From Patescibacteria group bacterium (GTDB lineage: Bacteria; Patescibacteriota; Microgenomatia; UBA12405): a stretch of DNA of 64,000 bases. Shown in pieces: positions 9,693 to 17,302 of the stretch; position 1 is the first letter of the stretch; each line of letters begins with the position of its first letter. The notes under the pieces were generated by a model. It was not told where the DNA came from. It saw only the letters and a list, made by a program, of their open reading frames with translations, and did not search any database. Position numbers and translations under genes: made by a program. The stretch covers positions 188,735-252,734 of the forward strand of contig JAMCSD010000006.1 of the NCBI GenBank assembly GCA_023380755.1, read 5' to 3'.

Positions 9693-10913
9693 ATGAAAAT
9701 TGCCCTAAAATGTTTTATCCTTATTTTCGCTGGATTTATTGCTTATAATCTTCTAAAATTGCCTTTCAATGTTTCTGCCGACATCTCCAGCTATACTGCC
9801 AGTGAGTTCTCGCGATATTGTGAAGACAAAGTCAATCATTCTATTTGTAATAAAGTTGAAAGTCCTAGTGATCAGATAATTGTCACCTGTCCTGCCGAAA
9901 GTCAATCAATTTCCGAGGTTTATGTTCATGCCGGTGACGGTCAGACCCTTTATCAGCTGCCCGATAGTCAGTTTGAAGCTGCCTATAGTAATACCCACAA
10001 CGCTGTTACCGTTAAGGTCACTGAAGGTCAACATAATTTGAGTTATGTTGGGGTTATTTGCGGCGTTCCGGTGACTAACACCCCGACTGTCGGTCAGCTG
10101 CCGACTAATACCCCAATTGCCACTAGCACCCCCGAGGCGACCAACACTCCCCAACCAACCAGCACACCCAGAGCAGACAATACTCCCACACCAACCGTCG
10201 AAATTAGTTCTCCAACCCCCACCGAAGTCAATAGCCAGCCGACTGCCACCCCGACTCCCACTAACGCCCCATCTAATAACGATGGCAACAATAGTAACAA
10301 TAACAACAACAATAATAATTCTTCTGACAACAACAGTTCCAACAATCCTCCCGCTCCCACCGCTACTCCAGTTCCCGCCGCCGGGATCGGTGGTGGTAAT
10401 GCCGCCAACGACAACAATAACCCCATCATTGCTGGCCTCGAAGCTTCCCAGGGAGAAGTCTTGGGAGAGAGTACCCAGCTTCCCTACACTGGTACCAGTG
10501 ACGCCAGCCCGGAAAAACTGCCTTCTAATAACCTTCGCCAAATCGGTCTTTCCTTAGCTATTCCCAAACTCTCTTTTCTCGCCCCGATTTATCAGGCCGT
10601 CGAGCTTGGTGATCAGTACCTTGTTGGGGATAAGGAAGTTCTCGAGAAAGAGGTTAATGGCGCCTATTTCCTTTATGGCCACAACAGCCCCGATGTCTTT
10701 GGGCGGCTTAATCATTTAACGGTTGGCGATACCTTAGTCCGGAGTGCCTTTGGCCAAGAAGTCACCTATCGGGTGACGGGCATTCGCTGGGTTTCCCAAT
10801 ATAATCAAGAAGTTTTAAGTCACTTAGTTCCCGGCTCCCTGGTTCTTGTCAGTTGTGACCCCAATAATTTGTCCTTAAGGATTGTTATTAATGCTGTCCC
10901 TACCAATGAATAG
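9693..10913 (+). CDS. Surface protein fused to a C-terminal sortase domain (signal/TM, Cys-containing domain, PT-rich linker, poly-Asn, LPYTG, sortase)
   Basis: Sortase signature in order: LAIPKL, LYGHN (His), LTVGDTL, LVLVSCDP (Cys), LRIV (Arg). An internal LPYTG lies at 10479-10493. Confidence 0.75.
   Translation: MKIALKCFILIFAGFIAYNLLKLPFNVSADISSYTASEFSRYCEDKVNHSICNKVESPSDQIIVTCPAESQSISEVYVHAGDGQTLYQLPDSQFEAAYSNTHNAVTVKVTEGQHNLSYVGVICGVPVTNTPTVGQLPTNTPIATSTPEATNTPQPTSTPRADNTPTPTVEISSPTPTEVNSQPTATPTPTNAPSNNDGNNSNNNNNNNNSSDNNSSNNPPAPTATPVPAAGIGGGNAANDNNNPIIAGLEASQGEVLGESTQLPYTGTSDASPEKLPSNNLRQIGLSLAIPKLSFLAPIYQAVELGDQYLVGDKEVLEKEVNGAYFLYGHNSPDVFGRLNHLTVGDTLVRSAFGQEVTYRVTGIRWVSQYNQEVLSHLVPGSLVLVSCDPNNLSLRIVINAVPTNE
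10078..10347 (+). repeat. Low-complexity Pro/Thr-rich linker followed by an AAC/AAT (poly-Asn) tract
   Basis: Reiterated TNTP/TPTP codons at 10078-10270. The NNDGNNSNNNNNNNSSDNNSSNN tract is encoded at about 10272-10347. Confidence 0.85.
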
Positions 10914-11567: not shown

Positions 11568-11849
11568 ATGTCACTACATGAAGGCGTCACCATCATCACT
11601 CAAGATTATGTTTCCAAAAAAGGGTTCAATAACAACAAGCGGCTTGAAGAAGACCCGCTAGTACCAACCCCGACTGATTTAGCTACTAAAGAAGGGCTGG
11701 ATCGGGGATCAGGTTCCACCAAAGGGATTCCGATGCATGGTGGTGAACTAATTGTCCCTAACTCTCGTTACCGGGAAATTGAAGCTATTCTTCGCGCTCG
11801 CCCGGTATACGCTTTGACCTATGAGTCCCGCCTCCGGGATAGTGATTAG
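11568..11849 (+). CDS. Hypothetical small protein (uncertain)
   Basis: In-frame ATG at 11568, preceded by TAAATT 5 nt upstream, which fits the leaderless pattern seen elsewhere in the window. No recognisable motif. Its 3' end overlaps the minus-strand ORF 11748-11993. Confidence 0.3.
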   Translation: MSLHEGVTIITQDYVSKKGFNNNKRLEEDPLVPTPTDLATKEGLDRGSGSTKGIPMHGGELIVPNSRYREIEAILRARPVYALTYESRLRDSD

Positions 11850-11993
11850 AACCGTAAAAATCCCAGAGTTATGAGGCCTGTAGCGATTAAATATATCCCC
11901 ACCAAGACGCTTAATAGTTTCGGATTTACTAGGATAAGAAATCCAAAAATAATCGACAGAATGGGGTTGATATTTCGTAAAATCATAATTCAT
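11748..11993 (-). CDS. Hypothetical small protein (uncertain)
   Basis: 81-aa ORF with an AGAGG Shine-Dalgarno-like sequence 8 nt upstream of its ATG. No recognisable motif. It conflicts with the 3' end of 11568-11849. Confidence 0.25.
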   Translation of the reverse strand: MNYDFTKYQPHSVDYFWISYPSKSETIKRLGGDIFNRYRPHNSGIFTVLITIPEAGLIGQSVYRASAKNSFNFPVTRVRDN

Positions 11994-12335
11994 TATAACA
12001 ACCTCTTGACACCTTGTTAACCGTGCGTTTTACTGAGGTGTCTTCACAATAAAAACCGCCTCTAACGCCGGGGGCAAATAAAAAATAAAATGGCTAAATT
12101 TGTACAAAAGCTCGATTTGTTGGTTTCCACTGCGGGCTTTTTTTAGTTTCCTAAACGGGCGGTAACACCGCGTTATCTTTCCGTTTTGCCCTTTAACAAG
12201 TTGAAGGTTAAACTACTTGGTTTAGCAAGGTAGCGGAGTCGGGGCAGGCTACTCCGCTGCTTTGCTAACCAGGGATAGCATATTAGGCAGTTCGCCATCG
12301 TCTGTAGGAATTGTTGTTTTTACTGGAGGTTAGTC
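11994..12335 (+). promoter_or_regulatory. Long structured 5' leader of the ECF operon (candidate cis-regulatory RNA, class unknown)
   Basis: 342-nt non-coding gap. Possible promoter TTGACA (12006-12011), 17-nt spacer, TTTACT. Stems: GACACCT/AGGTGTC; AAACGG-GCGGT-aac-ACCGC-...-CCGTTT; and an uninterrupted 18-bp helix at 12222-12268. GGAGG Shine-Dalgarno sequence before the GTG at 12336. Confidence 0.4.
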
Positions 12336-13046
12336 GTGCTTAACTACTTGAATCAGTTGCTTGCTGGTATTAGTGCTGATCCGGTCGAGTTGGTCTTTTT
12401 AGTGCTGGCGCTAGTTATGGCCGGCGTGTTGCTCTATCAAAATCGTTCTCGGCTACGCCTGACTGATGGCAAAAACGAGGTTGATGGAGTTTACGGCTTA
12501 GTCGGTGGTGCCGTGTTGGGTGCTCTGACCGGTGTCCTCTGGGCTTATTTGAACCCGATTCAACTGGCCCCCGGGATTCACCTGCGTCTGTTTGCCATGC
12601 TGCCCTGCATCTTCGGGATAGTTTTTGGCCGCGGCACCGGTTTCGTCAGTGGTTATGTGGCTACCATTGTATGGGGTGTATTGTCGAACCTCTTCTTGCC
12701 GTTCCATACCCCCTTAGTCGATGGTGTTTTTGTTGGTTTGACAGGCTGGATCCCGGCTATGTTGCTGCGTGGAAATGATAACAATGAAACCCTCTTAAAC
12801 ACCATTCTCCAAAACCCTCGTCAGTGGTATATCCGGGCGGGTTTAGTCAGTCTCTTCGCTGGTTTGTTCATGTCGGTCTTTGTCGGTATCTCGCTTAATG
12901 CCACTATCCAACTGCCATTCTGGACGGGCTTTGGCTTGATTGGCATCGTCTCGGATACCCCCATGATGGTCCTTTTCACCGGAGTCGGAGCTCTCTGGCT
13001 GCTCAAGGCCACCCGTCGCCAGTGGAAAGTGATGCACGCCTTTTAA
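12336..13046 (+). CDS. Putative ECF-transporter substrate-capture (S) component
   Basis: 236-aa protein with about 6 TM helices, GTG start and a GGAGG Shine-Dalgarno sequence. It lies directly upstream of the EcfT-like and duplicated EcfA-like genes. The role is assigned from context and topology only. Confidence 0.6.
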   Translation: MLNYLNQLLAGISADPVELVFLVLALVMAGVLLYQNRSRLRLTDGKNEVDGVYGLVGGAVLGALTGVLWAYLNPIQLAPGIHLRLFAMLPCIFGIVFGRGTGFVSGYVATIVWGVLSNLFLPFHTPLVDGVFVGLTGWIPAMLLRGNDNNETLLNTILQNPRQWYIRAGLVSLFAGLFMSVFVGISLNATIQLPFWTGFGLIGIVSDTPMMVLFTGVGALWLLKATRRQWKVMHAF

Positions 13047-13054
13047 GGCCCATA

Positions 13055-13088
13055 AGTAAGATTGGATTACCTGGAATCCAATCTTACT
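13055..13088 (+). other. Perfect intercistronic stem-loop between the S and T genes
   Basis: GTAAGATTGGATT (13056-13068), loop ACCTGG, AATCCAATCTTAC (13075-13087), plus one flanking A-T pair. No U-tract follows. Confidence 0.8.
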
Positions 13089-13108
13089 CCTCGTTGTCTG
13101 GAGGTGAT

Positions 13109-13846
13109 ATGCCCTCTAAACCCTTTTTCGAACGTCTCGACCCTCGGGTTAGGATCATCTGGATGTTTCTTCTATCGGCTCTCACCTTGCATTTTATGGA
13201 GCCTTTACCGCTTCTTTTGGTCGTGCTCTCGATCATCCCCGTGTGGCTGCTGGCCCGCCGTTTCCTGATGCTAGTTTCCAAAGTCACCCCCAAGGCTATC
13301 GCTTTTATGCTTTTCTTGGCCGTGACCCAGTCGATCTCCCAGTTGATCATGACTCACACTGTTAATCCGAATGTCCTGGCCATTCAAATGGAGCGGGTAT
13401 ACGTGATGGTCACCGCCTCCGTTCTTCTTTTTCAGACCACAAACTATAGCCAAATCACAGCCGCCATTCGCAGTCTTAAGCCCCGAAATCCTGAAAGTAA
13501 ATTAGCACCTTTTATCGAATCAGCAGCTTTTACTGTTGGAATTGCCTTCCAAATGATTCCGACTATCTTGACGGAAATCGCTACCATGGCTCAGGTCCGC
13601 CGGGCTCGTGGTGAGGCGATCACTGAAGGTAAAGCTCTAGAACGGGCTAAAAAGTCACTCCGTCTCGGTATGCCGTTAGTCAACCGCATGATCGATGTCA
13701 TCAAAAATATCAACCTGGCTTTAACTAATTATGCTTACTCCAACCGTCGTCGTCGCACCCAATTTCGGATTATCCGCTTTTCCCTGATGGACTATGCTGC
13801 TTTGTTGGTGGTTTTTGCTGCGGCACTTGCCTTTTTATTTGTTTAA
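13109..13846 (+). CDS. ecfT: ECF transporter transmembrane (T) component, CbiQ/EcfT family
   Basis: ATG at 13109 preceded by GGAGGTGAT. The start MPSKPFFERLDPRVRIIW is typical of the family, and the conserved coupling region reads AQVRRARGE. I preferred this start to the track start at 13022. Confidence 0.85.
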   Translation: MPSKPFFERLDPRVRIIWMFLLSALTLHFMEPLPLLLVVLSIIPVWLLARRFLMLVSKVTPKAIAFMLFLAVTQSISQLIMTHTVNPNVLAIQMERVYVMVTASVLLFQTTNYSQITAAIRSLKPRNPESKLAPFIESAAFTVGIAFQMIPTILTEIATMAQVRRARGEAITEGKALERAKKSLRLGMPLVNRMIDVIKNINLALTNYAYSNRRRRTQFRIIRFSLMDYAALLVVFAAALAFLFV

Positions 13847-13857
13847 CCTTCACTTTC

Positions 13858-13891
13858 TCCTGGAGGGATTGCCCTCACACTCCCTCCAGGA
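13858..13891 (+). other. Intercistronic stem-loop between the T and ATPase genes
   Basis: CCTGGAGGGA (13859-13868) and TCCCTCCAGG (13881-13890), a 10-bp perfect stem plus one flanking pair, with a 12-nt loop and no U-tract. Confidence 0.75.
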
Positions 13892-13916
13892 AATTTCCTT
13901 AAAAATATAAACTATT

Positions 13917-15404
13917 ATGTCCACTCCAGAAGAAATATTTCGCCTAAATGCCTTATCTTATCAATACGATCAGACCAATTCTCCGGCTCTCAGAGACGTT
14001 AATTGTCATATTCAAGCTGGTGAAGCAGTCGGTATCATCGGCGAAAGCGGCGGTGGTAAAACTACCGCTCTCAATCTTCTCTCCGGGATAATTCCCCACA
14101 TGGTCCAAGATGGCAAGTATGAAGGCGAAGCCCTATTTCGGGGAGCCAGTATCCAACACTTGTCCATTTACGACCTTATGCGTCACGTCAAAATTGTTTT
14201 TCAGGACGCCTCTACCCAAAATTTTGGTTTAAATGTTGATGACGCCTTAGCCTTTGGTATGGAAAATATTGCTCTATCACCAAAAGAAATCGAGTATCGG
14301 ATTAAAAAAATTGCTGATGAACTCAATATTACTCATCTTCGGGCTAAAAACACCCAGCAATTATCCGGTGGCGAACGTCAAAGAGTTGCCATCGCTTCCG
14401 CCTTAGCCATGGACCCTGAAGTTTTATTACTCGACGAAGCAATTTCCGCTCTCGATACGGGCGGCCAAATGGACGTCAGGCAAATTGTGGAGCAACAGCG
14501 CGCCTCTGGCAAAACCATGGTTTTAGTTGATTCCGATGTCCGCTGGCTAGCAAAGACCGTTGATCGGGTCCTGGTCCTTCAGAGCGGTCAGCTGATTTAT
14601 GATGGCCCACCCCAGGTAATTTTTCAGCGAGCCGATTTAGCCGAAGCTGCCGGCCTCGAAAACCACTCTGGCGAAATCCAGTTCCGGGAACCATTTACCG
14701 GCTCTCCCGTTGTTCAGCTGTCCCATATTTCTTTTGCCTATTCCAAAGATACCCCCGTCCTTAAAGACATTTCTTTAAATATTACGGCCGGTTCTTGTGA
14801 AGCTTTAGTTGGTCAAAACGGCTCGGGTAAAACCACTCTGGCAAAAATTATTGCCGGCCTAATTAAGCCGTCGGCCGGTGAAGTTTTTATTAACGGCCAA
14901 GTTCCCTACAATTTGACCTCCCCTCGATTAGTCGAAAACGTCGGTTACGTTTTCCAAAATCCCTCCCAACAGTTTGTCGACGAAACCGTGAAAGAAGAGT
15001 TTTCCCATACCGCCTCGATTCTCAAACGCCCTCCGGCGGTCAGCCTTAAGGATTTTGATTTAGAAAATTATGCTGATAGTTCCCCTTGGGATTTATCTGC
15101 CGGTCAGCAGCAGCGCTTAGCGATCGCCAGCGTCGTTGCTACTAACCCCTCGGTGGTGATTTTTGACGAGCCCACTTTAGGGCAGACGCGGCGGGATCGT
15201 GAAAAATTAGTCGCTACTATCAAAAATCTCCAGCAGCAGGGGACCACTGTGGTGATTATTTCTCATGACCTTAAATTTATTGCCGATGCTGCCCAGCATG
15301 TTCATGTTATTGACCATGGCGAACTGCGGGCTAGTGGCGCTGCTCCGGAAATTCTTCAAGATAAATCCTTATTTAATCATTTAGGTTTACCGCTTCCGTG
15401 GTAA
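13917..15404 (+). CDS. ECF transporter ATPase, fused duplicated A-A' component
   Basis: Two complete ABC cassettes: GESGGGKTT / LSGGERQRVAIASA / LLLDEA, and GQNGSGKTT / LSAGQQQRLAIASV / VIFDEPT. Confidence 0.9.
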   Translation: MSTPEEIFRLNALSYQYDQTNSPALRDVNCHIQAGEAVGIIGESGGGKTTALNLLSGIIPHMVQDGKYEGEALFRGASIQHLSIYDLMRHVKIVFQDASTQNFGLNVDDALAFGMENIALSPKEIEYRIKKIADELNITHLRAKNTQQLSGGERQRVAIASALAMDPEVLLLDEAISALDTGGQMDVRQIVEQQRASGKTMVLVDSDVRWLAKTVDRVLVLQSGQLIYDGPPQVIFQRADLAEAAGLENHSGEIQFREPFTGSPVVQLSHISFAYSKDTPVLKDISLNITAGSCEALVGQNGSGKTTLAKIIAGLIKPSAGEVFINGQVPYNLTSPRLVENVGYVFQNPSQQFVDETVKEEFSHTASILKRPPAVSLKDFDLENYADSSPWDLSAGQQQRLAIASVVATNPSVVIFDEPTLGQTRRDREKLVATIKNLQQQGTTVVIISHDLKFIADAAQHVHVIDHGELRASGAAPEILQDKSLFNHLGLPLPW

Positions 15405-15416
15405 AAAAGGCAGCCA

Positions 15417-16124
15417 ATGTCATCTAAAATCTTAGACCGAAAATATACTACCGCCATTTATGACGGCTATTCTCCATCTACCGAAAACCACCCGAATTTT
15501 TACGCTGTCGAACTACGGACGGTTCGTGGTTCAGTCGCTACCCTGGAATTACCATTTCGGCCGTTGCCGGATCCCGAACAGGCTATTTCTTTGCTGATGA
15601 CCCTTCAATCCCCCCACTCTGTGATTCACCGCTTGTCCATGATGCTCACGGAGCAGGTAACTGATTGGCATCCCGATACCATTATTGGTATTCCGACCCT
15701 TGGTTTCCCCTTGGCCTGGGAGGTTTCCGACCGATTAGGCCTTCCTGATTTTGTCGCCTTAACCAACTCCCTGAAATATTGGCAGGACCAAAGTTTGGTG
15801 ACTATGGTGGAATCAGTCACCAGTGCCCCCAAGCCCATTTGTCTTGATCCTTATCTGGTGGATCGGGTGGCTGGCCGACGGGTGGTAGTCATTGATGACG
15901 TGGCCAATACTGGCATTAGTTTAAAAAAATCTATTGATCTAGTCTCTCGGGCGAAACCGGCTGATGTTAAAGTCGCCTTGGTTTTAACTGAGGGCCACAA
16001 ATGGCAAGGGGAGTTAGAGGAAATTAATTTTCCCTGGCGGACTGATCTAAGAGCTCTGGGGCATATTCCGACCTTCCAAAAAACGTCTCCGGGTTTTTGG
16101 AAGCCCAATCCTTCAACCATATAG
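15417..16124 (+). CDS. Type I phosphoribosyltransferase (APRT-like) with an N-terminal extension
   Basis: PRPP-binding loop VVVIDDVANTGISL. Core IIGIPTLGFPLAWEVS. Confidence 0.8.
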   Translation: MSSKILDRKYTTAIYDGYSPSTENHPNFYAVELRTVRGSVATLELPFRPLPDPEQAISLLMTLQSPHSVIHRLSMMLTEQVTDWHPDTIIGIPTLGFPLAWEVSDRLGLPDFVALTNSLKYWQDQSLVTMVESVTSAPKPICLDPYLVDRVAGRRVVVIDDVANTGISLKKSIDLVSRAKPADVKVALVLTEGHKWQGELEEINFPWRTDLRALGHIPTFQKTSPGFWKPNPSTI

Positions 16125-16137
16125 ATTAATGCCCTAA

Positions 16138-16680
16138 ATGGATTATTATTCGCTCAATTTTTTTGGCCTTAAACGTAATCTACCCATCATTTCTATTGCC
16201 CCCAAAATTAAAATTGCCAGTTTCTCACTTTTAGGTGACGTGGAAATGACTCAAAAATCAGCTGAGGAATTAGCCAAAAGACTGCAGCCGCTCAACTTTG
16301 ATTATTTGGTCGGTCCTGAGGTCAAAGTTGTTCCTCTTCTTTTTGCCTTGTCTCAAGAATTAACTAAAAAACAATTTATTGTTTGCCGCAAAAGTGTCAA
16401 AGGCTACATGATTGCCCCCTTAATTTATAAAACCAAGTTGAAAAACAAAACCTTTATGTTGGTTCTTGACGGCCCCGATGTGGCGCGGATTAAAAACAAG
16501 CGGGTCATCGTGGTTGACGATGTTGTTTCTTCCGGTATCACGGTCAAAAACCTCCAAAAGTTCCTCCTGGCTTCTGGCGTCAATATCGTCGCTGTCGCTT
16601 CCATTTTTAAACAGAGCCCGCAATATCAAGATGAATTAATCTATCTTCAAGAATTGCCAGTTTTCACCAGCTCGTACTAA
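16138..16680 (+). CDS. Type I phosphoribosyltransferase (adenine/purine PRT-like)
   Basis: PRPP-binding loop VIVVDDVVSSGITV. Core YLVGPEVKVVPLLFAL, CRKSVKGY. Confidence 0.8.
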   Translation: MDYYSLNFFGLKRNLPIISIAPKIKIASFSLLGDVEMTQKSAEELAKRLQPLNFDYLVGPEVKVVPLLFALSQELTKKQFIVCRKSVKGYMIAPLIYKTKLKNKTFMLVLDGPDVARIKNKRVIVVDDVVSSGITVKNLQKFLLASGVNIVAVASIFKQSPQYQDELIYLQELPVFTSSY

Positions 16681-16696
16681 AATACTATTATATTCT

Positions 16697-17302
16697 ATGC
16701 TGACGGAAGTCATTTTCGACATCGAAACCAAAAAACTATTTGACGAAATTATCGGGTTTAATCCTGCCGACCTTGGGGTATCCCTTGTTTCTCTTTATAA
16801 ACGTACCTTAAATGAAAACGGCCGGGAAATAAAAGGGGAGATGCTTAGCTTTTGGGATAGTGAATTACCCTCACTATGGGCTCATTTTAGCAACGTTGAT
16901 CGGATTATCGGTTACAATTCCATTCATTTTGACGTTCCCGCTCTGGCGCCTTTATGCCCTTACGACCTCAAGAAAATTCCTCACCTAGACATTATGGATA
17001 AGTTGAAGGAAAAAACCGGATTTCGGGTGGGGTTGAATGCCGTCGCTTCCGAAACCTTAGGGATTACCAAAACCGATAATGGGATCAACGCCGTACTTTA
17101 TTGGCTTGAGCATTCCACCAGCTCTCTTAAAAAACTTAAAGAGTATTGTGAACACGATGTCTTAGTGACCAAAGAAGTTTATGATTACGGCCGAACTCAT
17201 GGCCATTTAAAGTATAAAGATAAATGGAATACTCCCCGTACTATTACAGTCGACTTCTCCTATCCGATGGATCCTCTCAGCCAACAGATGGGCTTATTCT
17301 AA
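16697..17302 (+). CDS. DEDD-type 3'-5' exonuclease (PolB-exonuclease-like, RNase H fold)
   Basis: ExoI FDIET, ExoII NSIHFDVPAL, HLDIMD, ExoIII YCEHDVLVT. Confidence 0.8.
   Translation: MLTEVIFDIETKKLFDEIIGFNPADLGVSLVSLYKRTLNENGREIKGEMLSFWDSELPSLWAHFSNVDRIIGYNSIHFDVPALAPLCPYDLKKIPHLDIMDKLKEKTGFRVGLNAVASETLGITKTDNGINAVLYWLEHSTSSLKKLKEYCEHDVLVTKEVYDYGRTHGHLKYKDKWNTPRTITVDFSYPMDPLSQQMGLF

Follow-up and report, generated by a model that had tools for sequence, protein, structure and literature searches.

Gene content of the locus

In this study, a stretch of 64,000 nucleotides from a Patescibacteria group bacterium (assembly GCA_023380755.1, contig JAMCSD010000006.1, positions 188,735 to 252,734), referred to below as the window, was examined for a five-gene operon in which a predicted energy-coupling factor (ECF) purine-base importer precedes two genes of the phosphoribosyltransferase (PRT) fold, here called PRT1 and PRT2, behind a structured leader RNA. 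The source genome is 77% complete, and genes reported below as missing from it are to be read as missing from an incomplete assembly. As the initial annotation had stated, open reading frames (ORFs) for the S component, EcfT, the fused ATPase and the two PRTs are all present on the + strand in that order, with two strong hairpins in the gaps:

12336..13046, + strand: ECF S component of a family without a name; two extra N-terminal helices; predicted purine-base binder
13055..13088, + strand: hairpin after S, 14 bp
13109..13846, + strand: EcfT; CbiQ family PF02361 (E 4e-8), first Ala-Arg-Gly motif kept
13858..13891, + strand: hairpin between T and ATPase genes
13917..15404, + strand: fused EcfA-A' ATPase, 495 aa; TIGR04520 and TIGR04521 both above cut-off
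15417..16124, + strand: PRT1, type I PRT, PRK06031-like; phosphoribosyl pyrophosphate (PRPP) loop and S-V-T flexible loop kept
16138..16680, + strand: PRT2, PRK07322 family (like the adenine phosphoribosyltransferase, APRT, of Thermus), 180 aa; PRPP loop and RK kept, S-I-T lost

The gaps between ATPase and PRT1 (12 nt) and between PRT1 and PRT2 (13 nt) are tiny, as all gaps had been said to be, but those between S and T (about 62 nt) and between T and ATPase (about 70 nt) are not, and each contains a strong hairpin (-19.6 and -23.1 kcal/mol, respectively). The spacing suggests that the five genes are co-transcribed, and the hairpin after S is a possible mRNA stabiliser.

The ECF importer

The S protein had no match in Pfam or NCBIfam, and it was therefore folded with AlphaFold2 (AF2) from a 28-sequence alignment, giving a mean confidence (pLDDT) of 91.7. 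In the structure search with this model, the top 13 VIA matches were all ECF S components (Z 9.3-14.6), the best being 4hzu_S (HmpT) with Z 14.6, a root mean square deviation of 3.0, 163 aligned residues and 17% identity; Foldseek ranked the matches likewise, but with E > 0.001. In view of these structural matches, the modelled protein is classed as the S component of a family lacking a model of its own. It shares 9-18% identity with each of the solved S components. Atlas features assign it to PF07155 at 0.90, and direct matches to PF07155 or PF12822 are weak and found in few family members (best E 9e-4, in 5 of 28). Across 87 homologues, residues W69, R84, F86, W113, H124 and D129 are invariant and D207 nearly so. 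Vitamins are the usual cargo of those ECF S components that have been characterised (PMC3971661), and placement in a well-defined vitamin family had been named beforehand as an outcome contrary to purine-base import. No family model of RibU, ThiT, BioY, FolT, PanT, HmpT, YkoE, QueT or NiaX was matched above cut-off by the S query, and no vitamin riboswitch was detected in the 19 S-family loci scanned. The RefSeq label 'aminotriazole resistance protein' on alphaproteobacterial homologues was set aside as uninformative.

EcfT, which probably starts at 13109 behind a GGAGG, is the sole CbiQ gene product in the genome, and its second Ala-Arg-Gly motif is replaced by an aromatic motif throughout the family. 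The ATPase had been credited with two full motif sets. Walker A, signature and Walker B are indeed kept in both halves (the second signature being LSAGQ), but the H-switch histidine is gone from the first half, as in the homologous fused ATPases tallied, so that the importer probably has a single intact ATP site and a degenerate one. With the S fold, its own T gene and two nucleotide-binding domains in one cluster, the importer is, judged from its genes, a dedicated ECF transporter of group I layout, in agreement with the first description. It shares with the known group I systems (YkoEDC, QrtTUVW, MtaTUV and CbrTUV; ECF-HmpT, 4HZU) an own S/T/ATPase operon, the fused A-A' chain and the six-helix S fold, and differs from them in its unmodelled S family, the two extra N-terminal helices, the degenerate H-switch, the replaced second T motif and the predicted purine-base substrate. 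The layout is thus standard for group I, the altered second T motif aside, and the S component lies outside any modelled family. The ECF list of TCDB given in PMC3654945 contains queuosine and methylthioadenosine families and no free-purine family.

The two phosphoribosyltransferases

Both PRT1 and PRT2 score above the Pfam cut-off for PF00156 and possess a PRPP-binding loop, and both fall far below the cut-offs of the Apt, Hpt, Xpt, Upp, PyrE and PyrR equivalog models. The best NCBIfam family of PRT1 is by far PRK06031 (132 bits, below the cut-off of 175), while PRT2 matches PRK07322 with 177 bits, above the cut-off of 143. The view of them as two paralogous active enzymes is not supported in that form: they are no recent paralogues, belong to different subfamilies, share 24% identity over 124 aa and stand in different clades of the PRT tree, which is a quick tree with long branches.

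PRT1 keeps the S-x-T catalytic loop (as S-V-T) and has lost the usual RK pair; it is only remotely related to the Thermus thermophilus APRT (E 1e-6) and belongs to an uncharacterised PRK06031-like group. PRT2 matches 5zgo end to end (E 8e-37) and shares the PEVK, RK and DDVVS-G motifs with the Thermus APRT (5ZGO, 6FSP; PRK07322), but it lacks the S-I-T-T-G flexible catalytic loop of that enzyme. The initial annotation had held that missing catalytic residues would count against a phosphoribosylation role; this applies in part to PRT2, in which S-I-T is lost. The loss is widespread: in the class-wide sample, a PRK07322 gene is present in 27 of 251 genomes, and S-I-T is gone from 22 of the 24 other proteins as it is from PRT2, the two that retain it both adjoining a methylthioadenosine (MTA) phosphorylase gene. 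A basic isoelectric point is common to loop-less and loop-keeping proteins and does not separate them. What follows the transporter is usually a PRT1-type gene, and such genes stand alone in many alphaproteobacterial cassettes; PRT2-type genes are mostly found just 5' of the promoter, outside the regulated operon. Judged by motifs and position, PRT1 is a probable salvage enzyme, and PRT2 is a candidate nucleotide-sensing regulator or, otherwise, an adenine PRT.

Two more divergent PRT clades were noticed in small-genome cassettes, in which DDFIGKGGT or DDARLTSG replaces the usual PRPP loop (L004:5154-5843, L005:11158-11898, L007:11826-12548 and L084:12451-13215; L005:10322-11152 and relatives).

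Distribution of the S family

The S family was recovered from 89 loci of alphaproteobacteria, Firmicutes, one cyanobacterial metagenome-assembled genome (MAG) and small-genome MAGs; within the order, it was found in only 4 of the 132 genomes searched. A fused ATPase accompanies S in 84 of the 89 loci and a PRT lies within 4.8 kb in 78, so that the proposed coupling of import to phosphoribosylation is conserved. Of the 11 loci without a PRT, six are catabolic clusters of Firmicutes and the other five are truncated. Among the alphaproteobacterial cassettes that start with S, 39 of 42 have a sigma-54 -24/-12 box, mostly 30-50 nt before S (shuffle rate 0.6%), and the box is missing where a second PRT lies upstream (loci L011-L083, L093-L095); these predicted boxes suggest nitrogen-linked control in alphaproteobacteria. 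The genomes of L004, L005, L007 and L008, from the same order or class as the window, carry the title 'uncultured Gammaproteobacteria bacterium' and are probably mislabelled.

A predicted pseudoknot attenuator in the leader

The conserved pseudoknot attenuator upstream of the S gene is the most novel part of the locus. The initial annotation had passed over this leader, which spans 12006-12273 and displays the following elements:

12006..12034, + strand: predicted sigma70 promoter, TTGACA, 17 nt, TTTACT; -10 weak and missed by the promoter scan
12048..12094, + strand: H-type RNA pseudoknot with conserved 5' CA(G) lead and A-rich loop 3; no Rfam match
12090..12146, + strand: upstream ORF (uORF) of 18 codons that reads through the terminator; peptide sequence unconserved
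12110..12144, + strand: intrinsic-terminator-like hairpin and U tract (attenuator); relatives have strong GC terminators at the same position
12188..12273, + strand: boxA-like element, then a long hairpin with covariation; found in leaders of this lineage generally

Stem 1 of the pseudoknot pairs 12058-62 with 12071-75, and stem 2 pairs 12067-70 with 12091-94, covering the start codon of the uORF. A TTGAC box stands in the same place in the leaders of relatives. In 19 of 20 leaders, no stop codon closes the uORF more than 15 nt short of the terminator, against 9.4 expected from shuffling, the threshold having been set post hoc. The knot was first seen in about ten cassette leaders and then sought in new loci. 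In a MAFFT alignment of 19 copies, stem 2 was 81% paired with 11 both-side changes and none of 500 shuffles did as well, while slid registers were 23-40% paired; the aligned copies were chosen for pairing and are related, so that the significance of this covariation is overstated. A descriptor tied to TTGAC matched 5 of 1338 boxes in the own genome, with a terminator at the window site only, and disclosed further copies ahead of Bmp genes and guaB. With a promoter-free descriptor, the knot was found directly 3' of 16 of 26 PRK07322 genes, the controls giving 2 matches in 400 random genome windows and none in 520 shuffles, and four more of these genes have a plausible knot by eye. The covariance model R2, run on whole genomes, gave strong new matches ahead of an operon of a secreted protein and Bmp, ahead of a 5-formyl-tetrahydrofolate (THF) cyclo-ligase-like gene that follows purF, and ahead of an NMT1 binding protein gene, with a weaker copy before another NMT1 gene; matches below about 31 bits lay mostly inside ORFs and were taken as false positives, and the search at phylum level added one weak match only. 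The knot leader precedes guaB, purA-linked, Bmp, ECF and adenine deaminase genes, and a few genes behind it are of no known function. Rfam 15 yielded no credible match on the window leader or on L131, even at E 10, in a cmscan search that ignores pseudoknot pairs.

Two arrangements behind the same knot leader were recorded on the side. L136:3145-3525 and the region downstream in L161 hold an ECF S-like gene of another kind, accompanied by a 5-formyl-THF cyclo-ligase-like gene. L119:10563-12548 (-) encodes a protein of the adenine deaminase family that seems to carry a signal peptide; a Bmp gene comes next, and the arrangement suggests deamination outside the cell. The element at 12188-12273 (model R1) was considered as a purine-specific switch and rejected, since it also stands ahead of unrelated genes; the boxA-like site (12188-12207) and long hairpin recur in several related genomes (L101-L107), in front of genes that look acquired, and NusB was not found in the own 77% complete genome.

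How the knot might be read

A covarying conserved structure 5' of one metabolic gene set and an expression platform, features by which riboswitches are recognised, are all present, and the knot is probably either a new purine riboswitch or a PRT2 binding site of the PyrR kind. In Bacillus subtilis, pyrimidine genes are controlled by PyrR attenuation, which combines a PRT-fold protein encoded at or in the operon with a structured leader RNA and an intrinsic terminator. The window resembles this system in having a PRT-fold protein at the operon, a structured leader and a terminator controlling nucleotide genes; it differs in its purine genes and in a pseudoknot over a uORF start, where PyrR uses a binding-loop hairpin and an antiterminator. 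By analogy, PRT2 would have given up catalysis to act as a purine version of PyrR, sensing purine nucleotides or PRPP and binding the pseudoknot; we put this forward tentatively, at not quite an even chance. It accords with the loss of S-I-T in 22 other proteins of the class sample as well as in PRT2 and its retention in the two motif-less cases next to MTA phosphorylase, with the position of PRT2, which mostly stands directly 5' of the promoter, as regulators typically do, whatever purine genes come after it, and with a Thermus homologue of the same family, APRTh, that is an inactive AMP sensor (10.1101/2025.10.31.685773). On the other hand, the co-occurrence may reflect one ancestral linkage of gene and promoter, the loop may have been lost only once, loop-keepers have the basic isoelectric point as well, and an RNA-binding surface was not identified on PRT2. 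Among the best 25 NCBIfam matches of PRT2, the sole PyrR model stands at E 0.005, and PRT2 is outside the PyrR family.

Direct binding of a purine or purine nucleotide by the knot, with PRT2 as an adenine PRT of divergent loop, is also a real possibility, though we would not bet on it. A small H-type knot with A-rich loop 3, junction G and 5' CAG resembles preQ1-I-type aptamers, and preQ1-I and other small H-type riboswitches share with it a stem of 5-6 bp, a loop-tail pseudoknot, an A-rich loop 3 and overlap with the translation start; likewise, the gene set behind the window leader is like the regulon of the guanine-I riboswitch (RF00167). The CAG stays with the knot despite 30 nt inserted after the promoter, the guaB start codon itself abuts stem 2 in L131, and PRT2 scores above the PRK07322 cut-off with its PRPP loop kept. 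The window knot differs from these riboswitches in a conserved junction G in place of the ligand-pairing C and in an output through a uORF-coupled terminator. It speaks against direct binding that all credible class-wide copies occur in genomes having a loop-less PRT2 and that both S-I-T keepers lack the motif, that in genome G043, where the cassette is present without a PRT2 above cut-off, the knot is decayed, that loop 1 varies from 0 to more than 20 nt with few invariant unpaired bases, and that a canonical Apt already exists in the genome. As for the output, the pyrBI and pyrE operons of Escherichia coli have translation-coupled attenuators in which a leader ORF runs into an intrinsic terminator. 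The window is like them in a leader ORF of unconserved sequence running into the terminator, and unlike them in that the knot would gate the start codon, rather than pausing dependent on nucleoside triphosphates alone.

Evidence for a purine-base substrate

Four lines of evidence point to the substrate class. The first is the close relative L096, which retains the same flanks, the promoter and leader (71% nucleotide identity), PRT1 (68%) and PRT2 (74%), and in which a Bmp ATP-binding cassette (ABC) importer stands in place of the ECF genes. The nearest solved relatives of the L096 binding protein are 3s99 (E 1e-37) and AtzT 6pi5 (E 4e-35). Adenine was modelled in 3s99, and AtzT binds guanine with a Kd of 0.11 uM, adenine with 2.5 uM and pyrimidines with at least 620 uM (PMC6834077). 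Purine ABC importers of this Bmp/PnrA type (AtzT, 3S99) are unrelated in transporter fold to the ECF module and occupy the same slot behind the same leader. The ligand contacts of AtzT are partly kept in the L096 protein, which therefore informs on the substrate class and not on the compound. In the Firmicute locus L090, the PRT, ATPase, T and S genes follow a purine riboswitch (84 bits) that has the C of the guanine type. Additional genes, purH, purP, guaA, purA and xpt-like, are found in the cassettes of small-genome relatives. The S gene of Paenibacillus, Cohnella and Moorella is surrounded by UbiD/UbiX, creatininase, isochorismatase, adenine-deaminase-like and cyclase genes (loci L009, L010, L034, L036 and L087-L089), joined in Moorella by a formiminotransferase gene; in outline, this cluster resembles the hydrolytic xanthinase pathway summarised in PMC12507026. 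The Paenibacillus and Cohnella clusters also contain apparent microcompartment shell genes, suggestive of compartmentalised purine breakdown.

In the own genome, Prs and Adk were found, together with a canonical Apt next to MTA phosphorylase (C6:110494-111766), which from the gene pair is a predicted separate adenine salvage route; IMPDH, GuaA, PurH, PurP and an NCS2 permease were not found in this 77% complete assembly. A PurA-family match (C6:93157-96896) is a divergent homologue with VWA-like and kinase-like neighbours, and it was not taken as evidence of purine interconversion. Since Apt is already present, a role of the cassette in guanine or hypoxanthine salvage is the more economical one.

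Taken together, we consider it likely that the operon serves purine-base uptake and salvage, guanine or hypoxanthine being the most likely substrate and adenine a possible one. The initial annotation had stated that the substrate cannot be read from the S sequence; genomic context now narrows it to the purine-base class. Several observations weigh against this interpretation and the switch proposed with it. Of the AtzT ligand contacts, Glu and Trp are apparently kept in the L096 protein but Ser and two Asn are not; the guanine riboswitch occurs in just one of the 19 loci scanned, and the Rfam search of nine alphaproteobacterial and other loci gave no match; guanylate kinase (Gmk) was not found in the incomplete genome; PRT1 lacks the RK pair; the transporter stands without a PRT in the six Firmicute loci; and the RNA descriptor was built after the first examples had been seen, in related genomes that are not independent.

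The main rival for the substrate is 5-aminoimidazole-4-carboxamide (AICA) or another imidazole intermediate of purine breakdown, from which PRT1 would make the ribonucleotide ZMP, with PurP and PurH closing to inosine monophosphate (IMP). The L004 cassette, with two purP genes and a purH N-terminal domain, the purH parts in L008, L084 and L099, and the likeness of the Firmicute cluster to a pathway with imidazole intermediates would suit it, but we judge it improbable: purH and purP were not found in the own genome in its present state of assembly, the swapped-in Bmp protein has its nearest relatives among binders of guanine and adenine, L090 is under a guanine-class riboswitch, and the PurH N-terminal domain is the IMP cyclohydrolase, which fits general purine interconversion. 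Similarly doubtful is an obligate form of the heteromer raised in the initial annotation, in which PRT2 would give RK in trans and PRT1 the flexible loop. The losses of the two proteins are complementary and their genes adjacent in the window and in L096, but they belong to different subfamilies, a single PRT1-type gene serves many alphaproteobacterial cassettes, the G043 cassette has no PRT2 above cut-off, and PRT2 goes with other downstream genes in most class genomes, so that the heteromer is not supported. Import of a vitamin or precursor (pyridoxine, hydroxymethylpyrimidine, niacin or queuine) or of an intact nucleoside, with the PRTs as passengers, is very improbable: the vitamin cargo of most characterised S components, the HmpT fold match, the NMT1/THI5 proteins behind the knot leader in two genomes and the binding of nucleosides by some Bmp proteins are outweighed by the low identity to solved S components, the weak PF07155/PF12822 matches in few members, the lack of vitamin riboswitches in the 19 loci, a PRT link that holds across phyla, and a cassette without nucleoside phosphorylase or kinase.

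Proposed mechanism

With purine-base uptake as the preferred reading, the S protein would bind a free purine base outside the cell, and EcfT with the fused ATPase would bring it to the cytoplasm by the toppling cycle established for ECF import (PMC3971661), probably with one fully active ATP site. PRT1 would then join the base to PRPP supplied by the genome's Prs, trapping it as the nucleotide. When the leader knot is stabilised, the uORF start would be hidden, the terminator would be left uncovered by the ribosome and transcription would end near 12144; under purine shortage, the uORF would be translated and the operon read through. In the guaB leaders, the knot would act at the gene's own start codon, which it overlaps. 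The stabiliser could be PRT2 acting in a PyrR-like manner, for which the chance is a little under even, or a directly bound ligand, which is slightly less probable, while other causes are unlikely. Overall, an ECF purine-base importer under a purine-sensing RNA switch, read by a ligand or by a disarmed APRT homologue, is the account that we favour by a modest measure. Computation established the gene identities, the S fold, synteny, the empty site and the transporter swap, the conservation and covariation of the leader and the motif states of the PRTs; from these we infer the substrate, the activity of PRT1, the direction of the switch and the stabiliser of the knot.

Borders of the cassette

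The operon and its leader lie between two genes:

11846..11986, - strand: DUF3096 small membrane protein gene (PF11295, E 3e-10), divergent; left insertion border
16697..17302, + strand: resident DEDD-type exonuclease gene; right insertion border

The DUF3096 and exonuclease genes directly adjoin each other in G001, a genome of the same genus that is 96% complete; this implies either an insertion in the window or a clean loss in G001; a mobile purine-scavenging cassette inserted between these two genes is the best explanation. The DUF3096 gene itself has a near-consensus extended -10 promoter (strong, 12020-11992) and an almost leaderless start. Farther upstream, at 9693-10913 of the window, lies the gene of a sortase-domain protein with a long linker rich in Pro/Thr and Asn.

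Implications

In our literature searches, by which absence from the literature is not established, neither the S family, nor ECF purine uptake, nor the knot motif was described. If the interpretation is true, ECF transporters would be extended from vitamins and metals to nucleobases. Either outcome for the leader, a new riboswitch class or a purine analogue of PyrR, would be new as far as these searches reach, in an RNA of 47 nt. The S family also occurs in culturable Rhizobium, Mesorhizobium, Bradyrhizobium and Paenibacillus, which makes it amenable to ordinary genetics. On how reduced-genome bacteria of the candidate phyla radiation (CPR) type secure their nucleotide supply, and on how they control their genes with a small set of regulators, the locus offers a concrete candidate, an uptake-and-trap route for purine bases together with a compact control element common to purine operons across the class.

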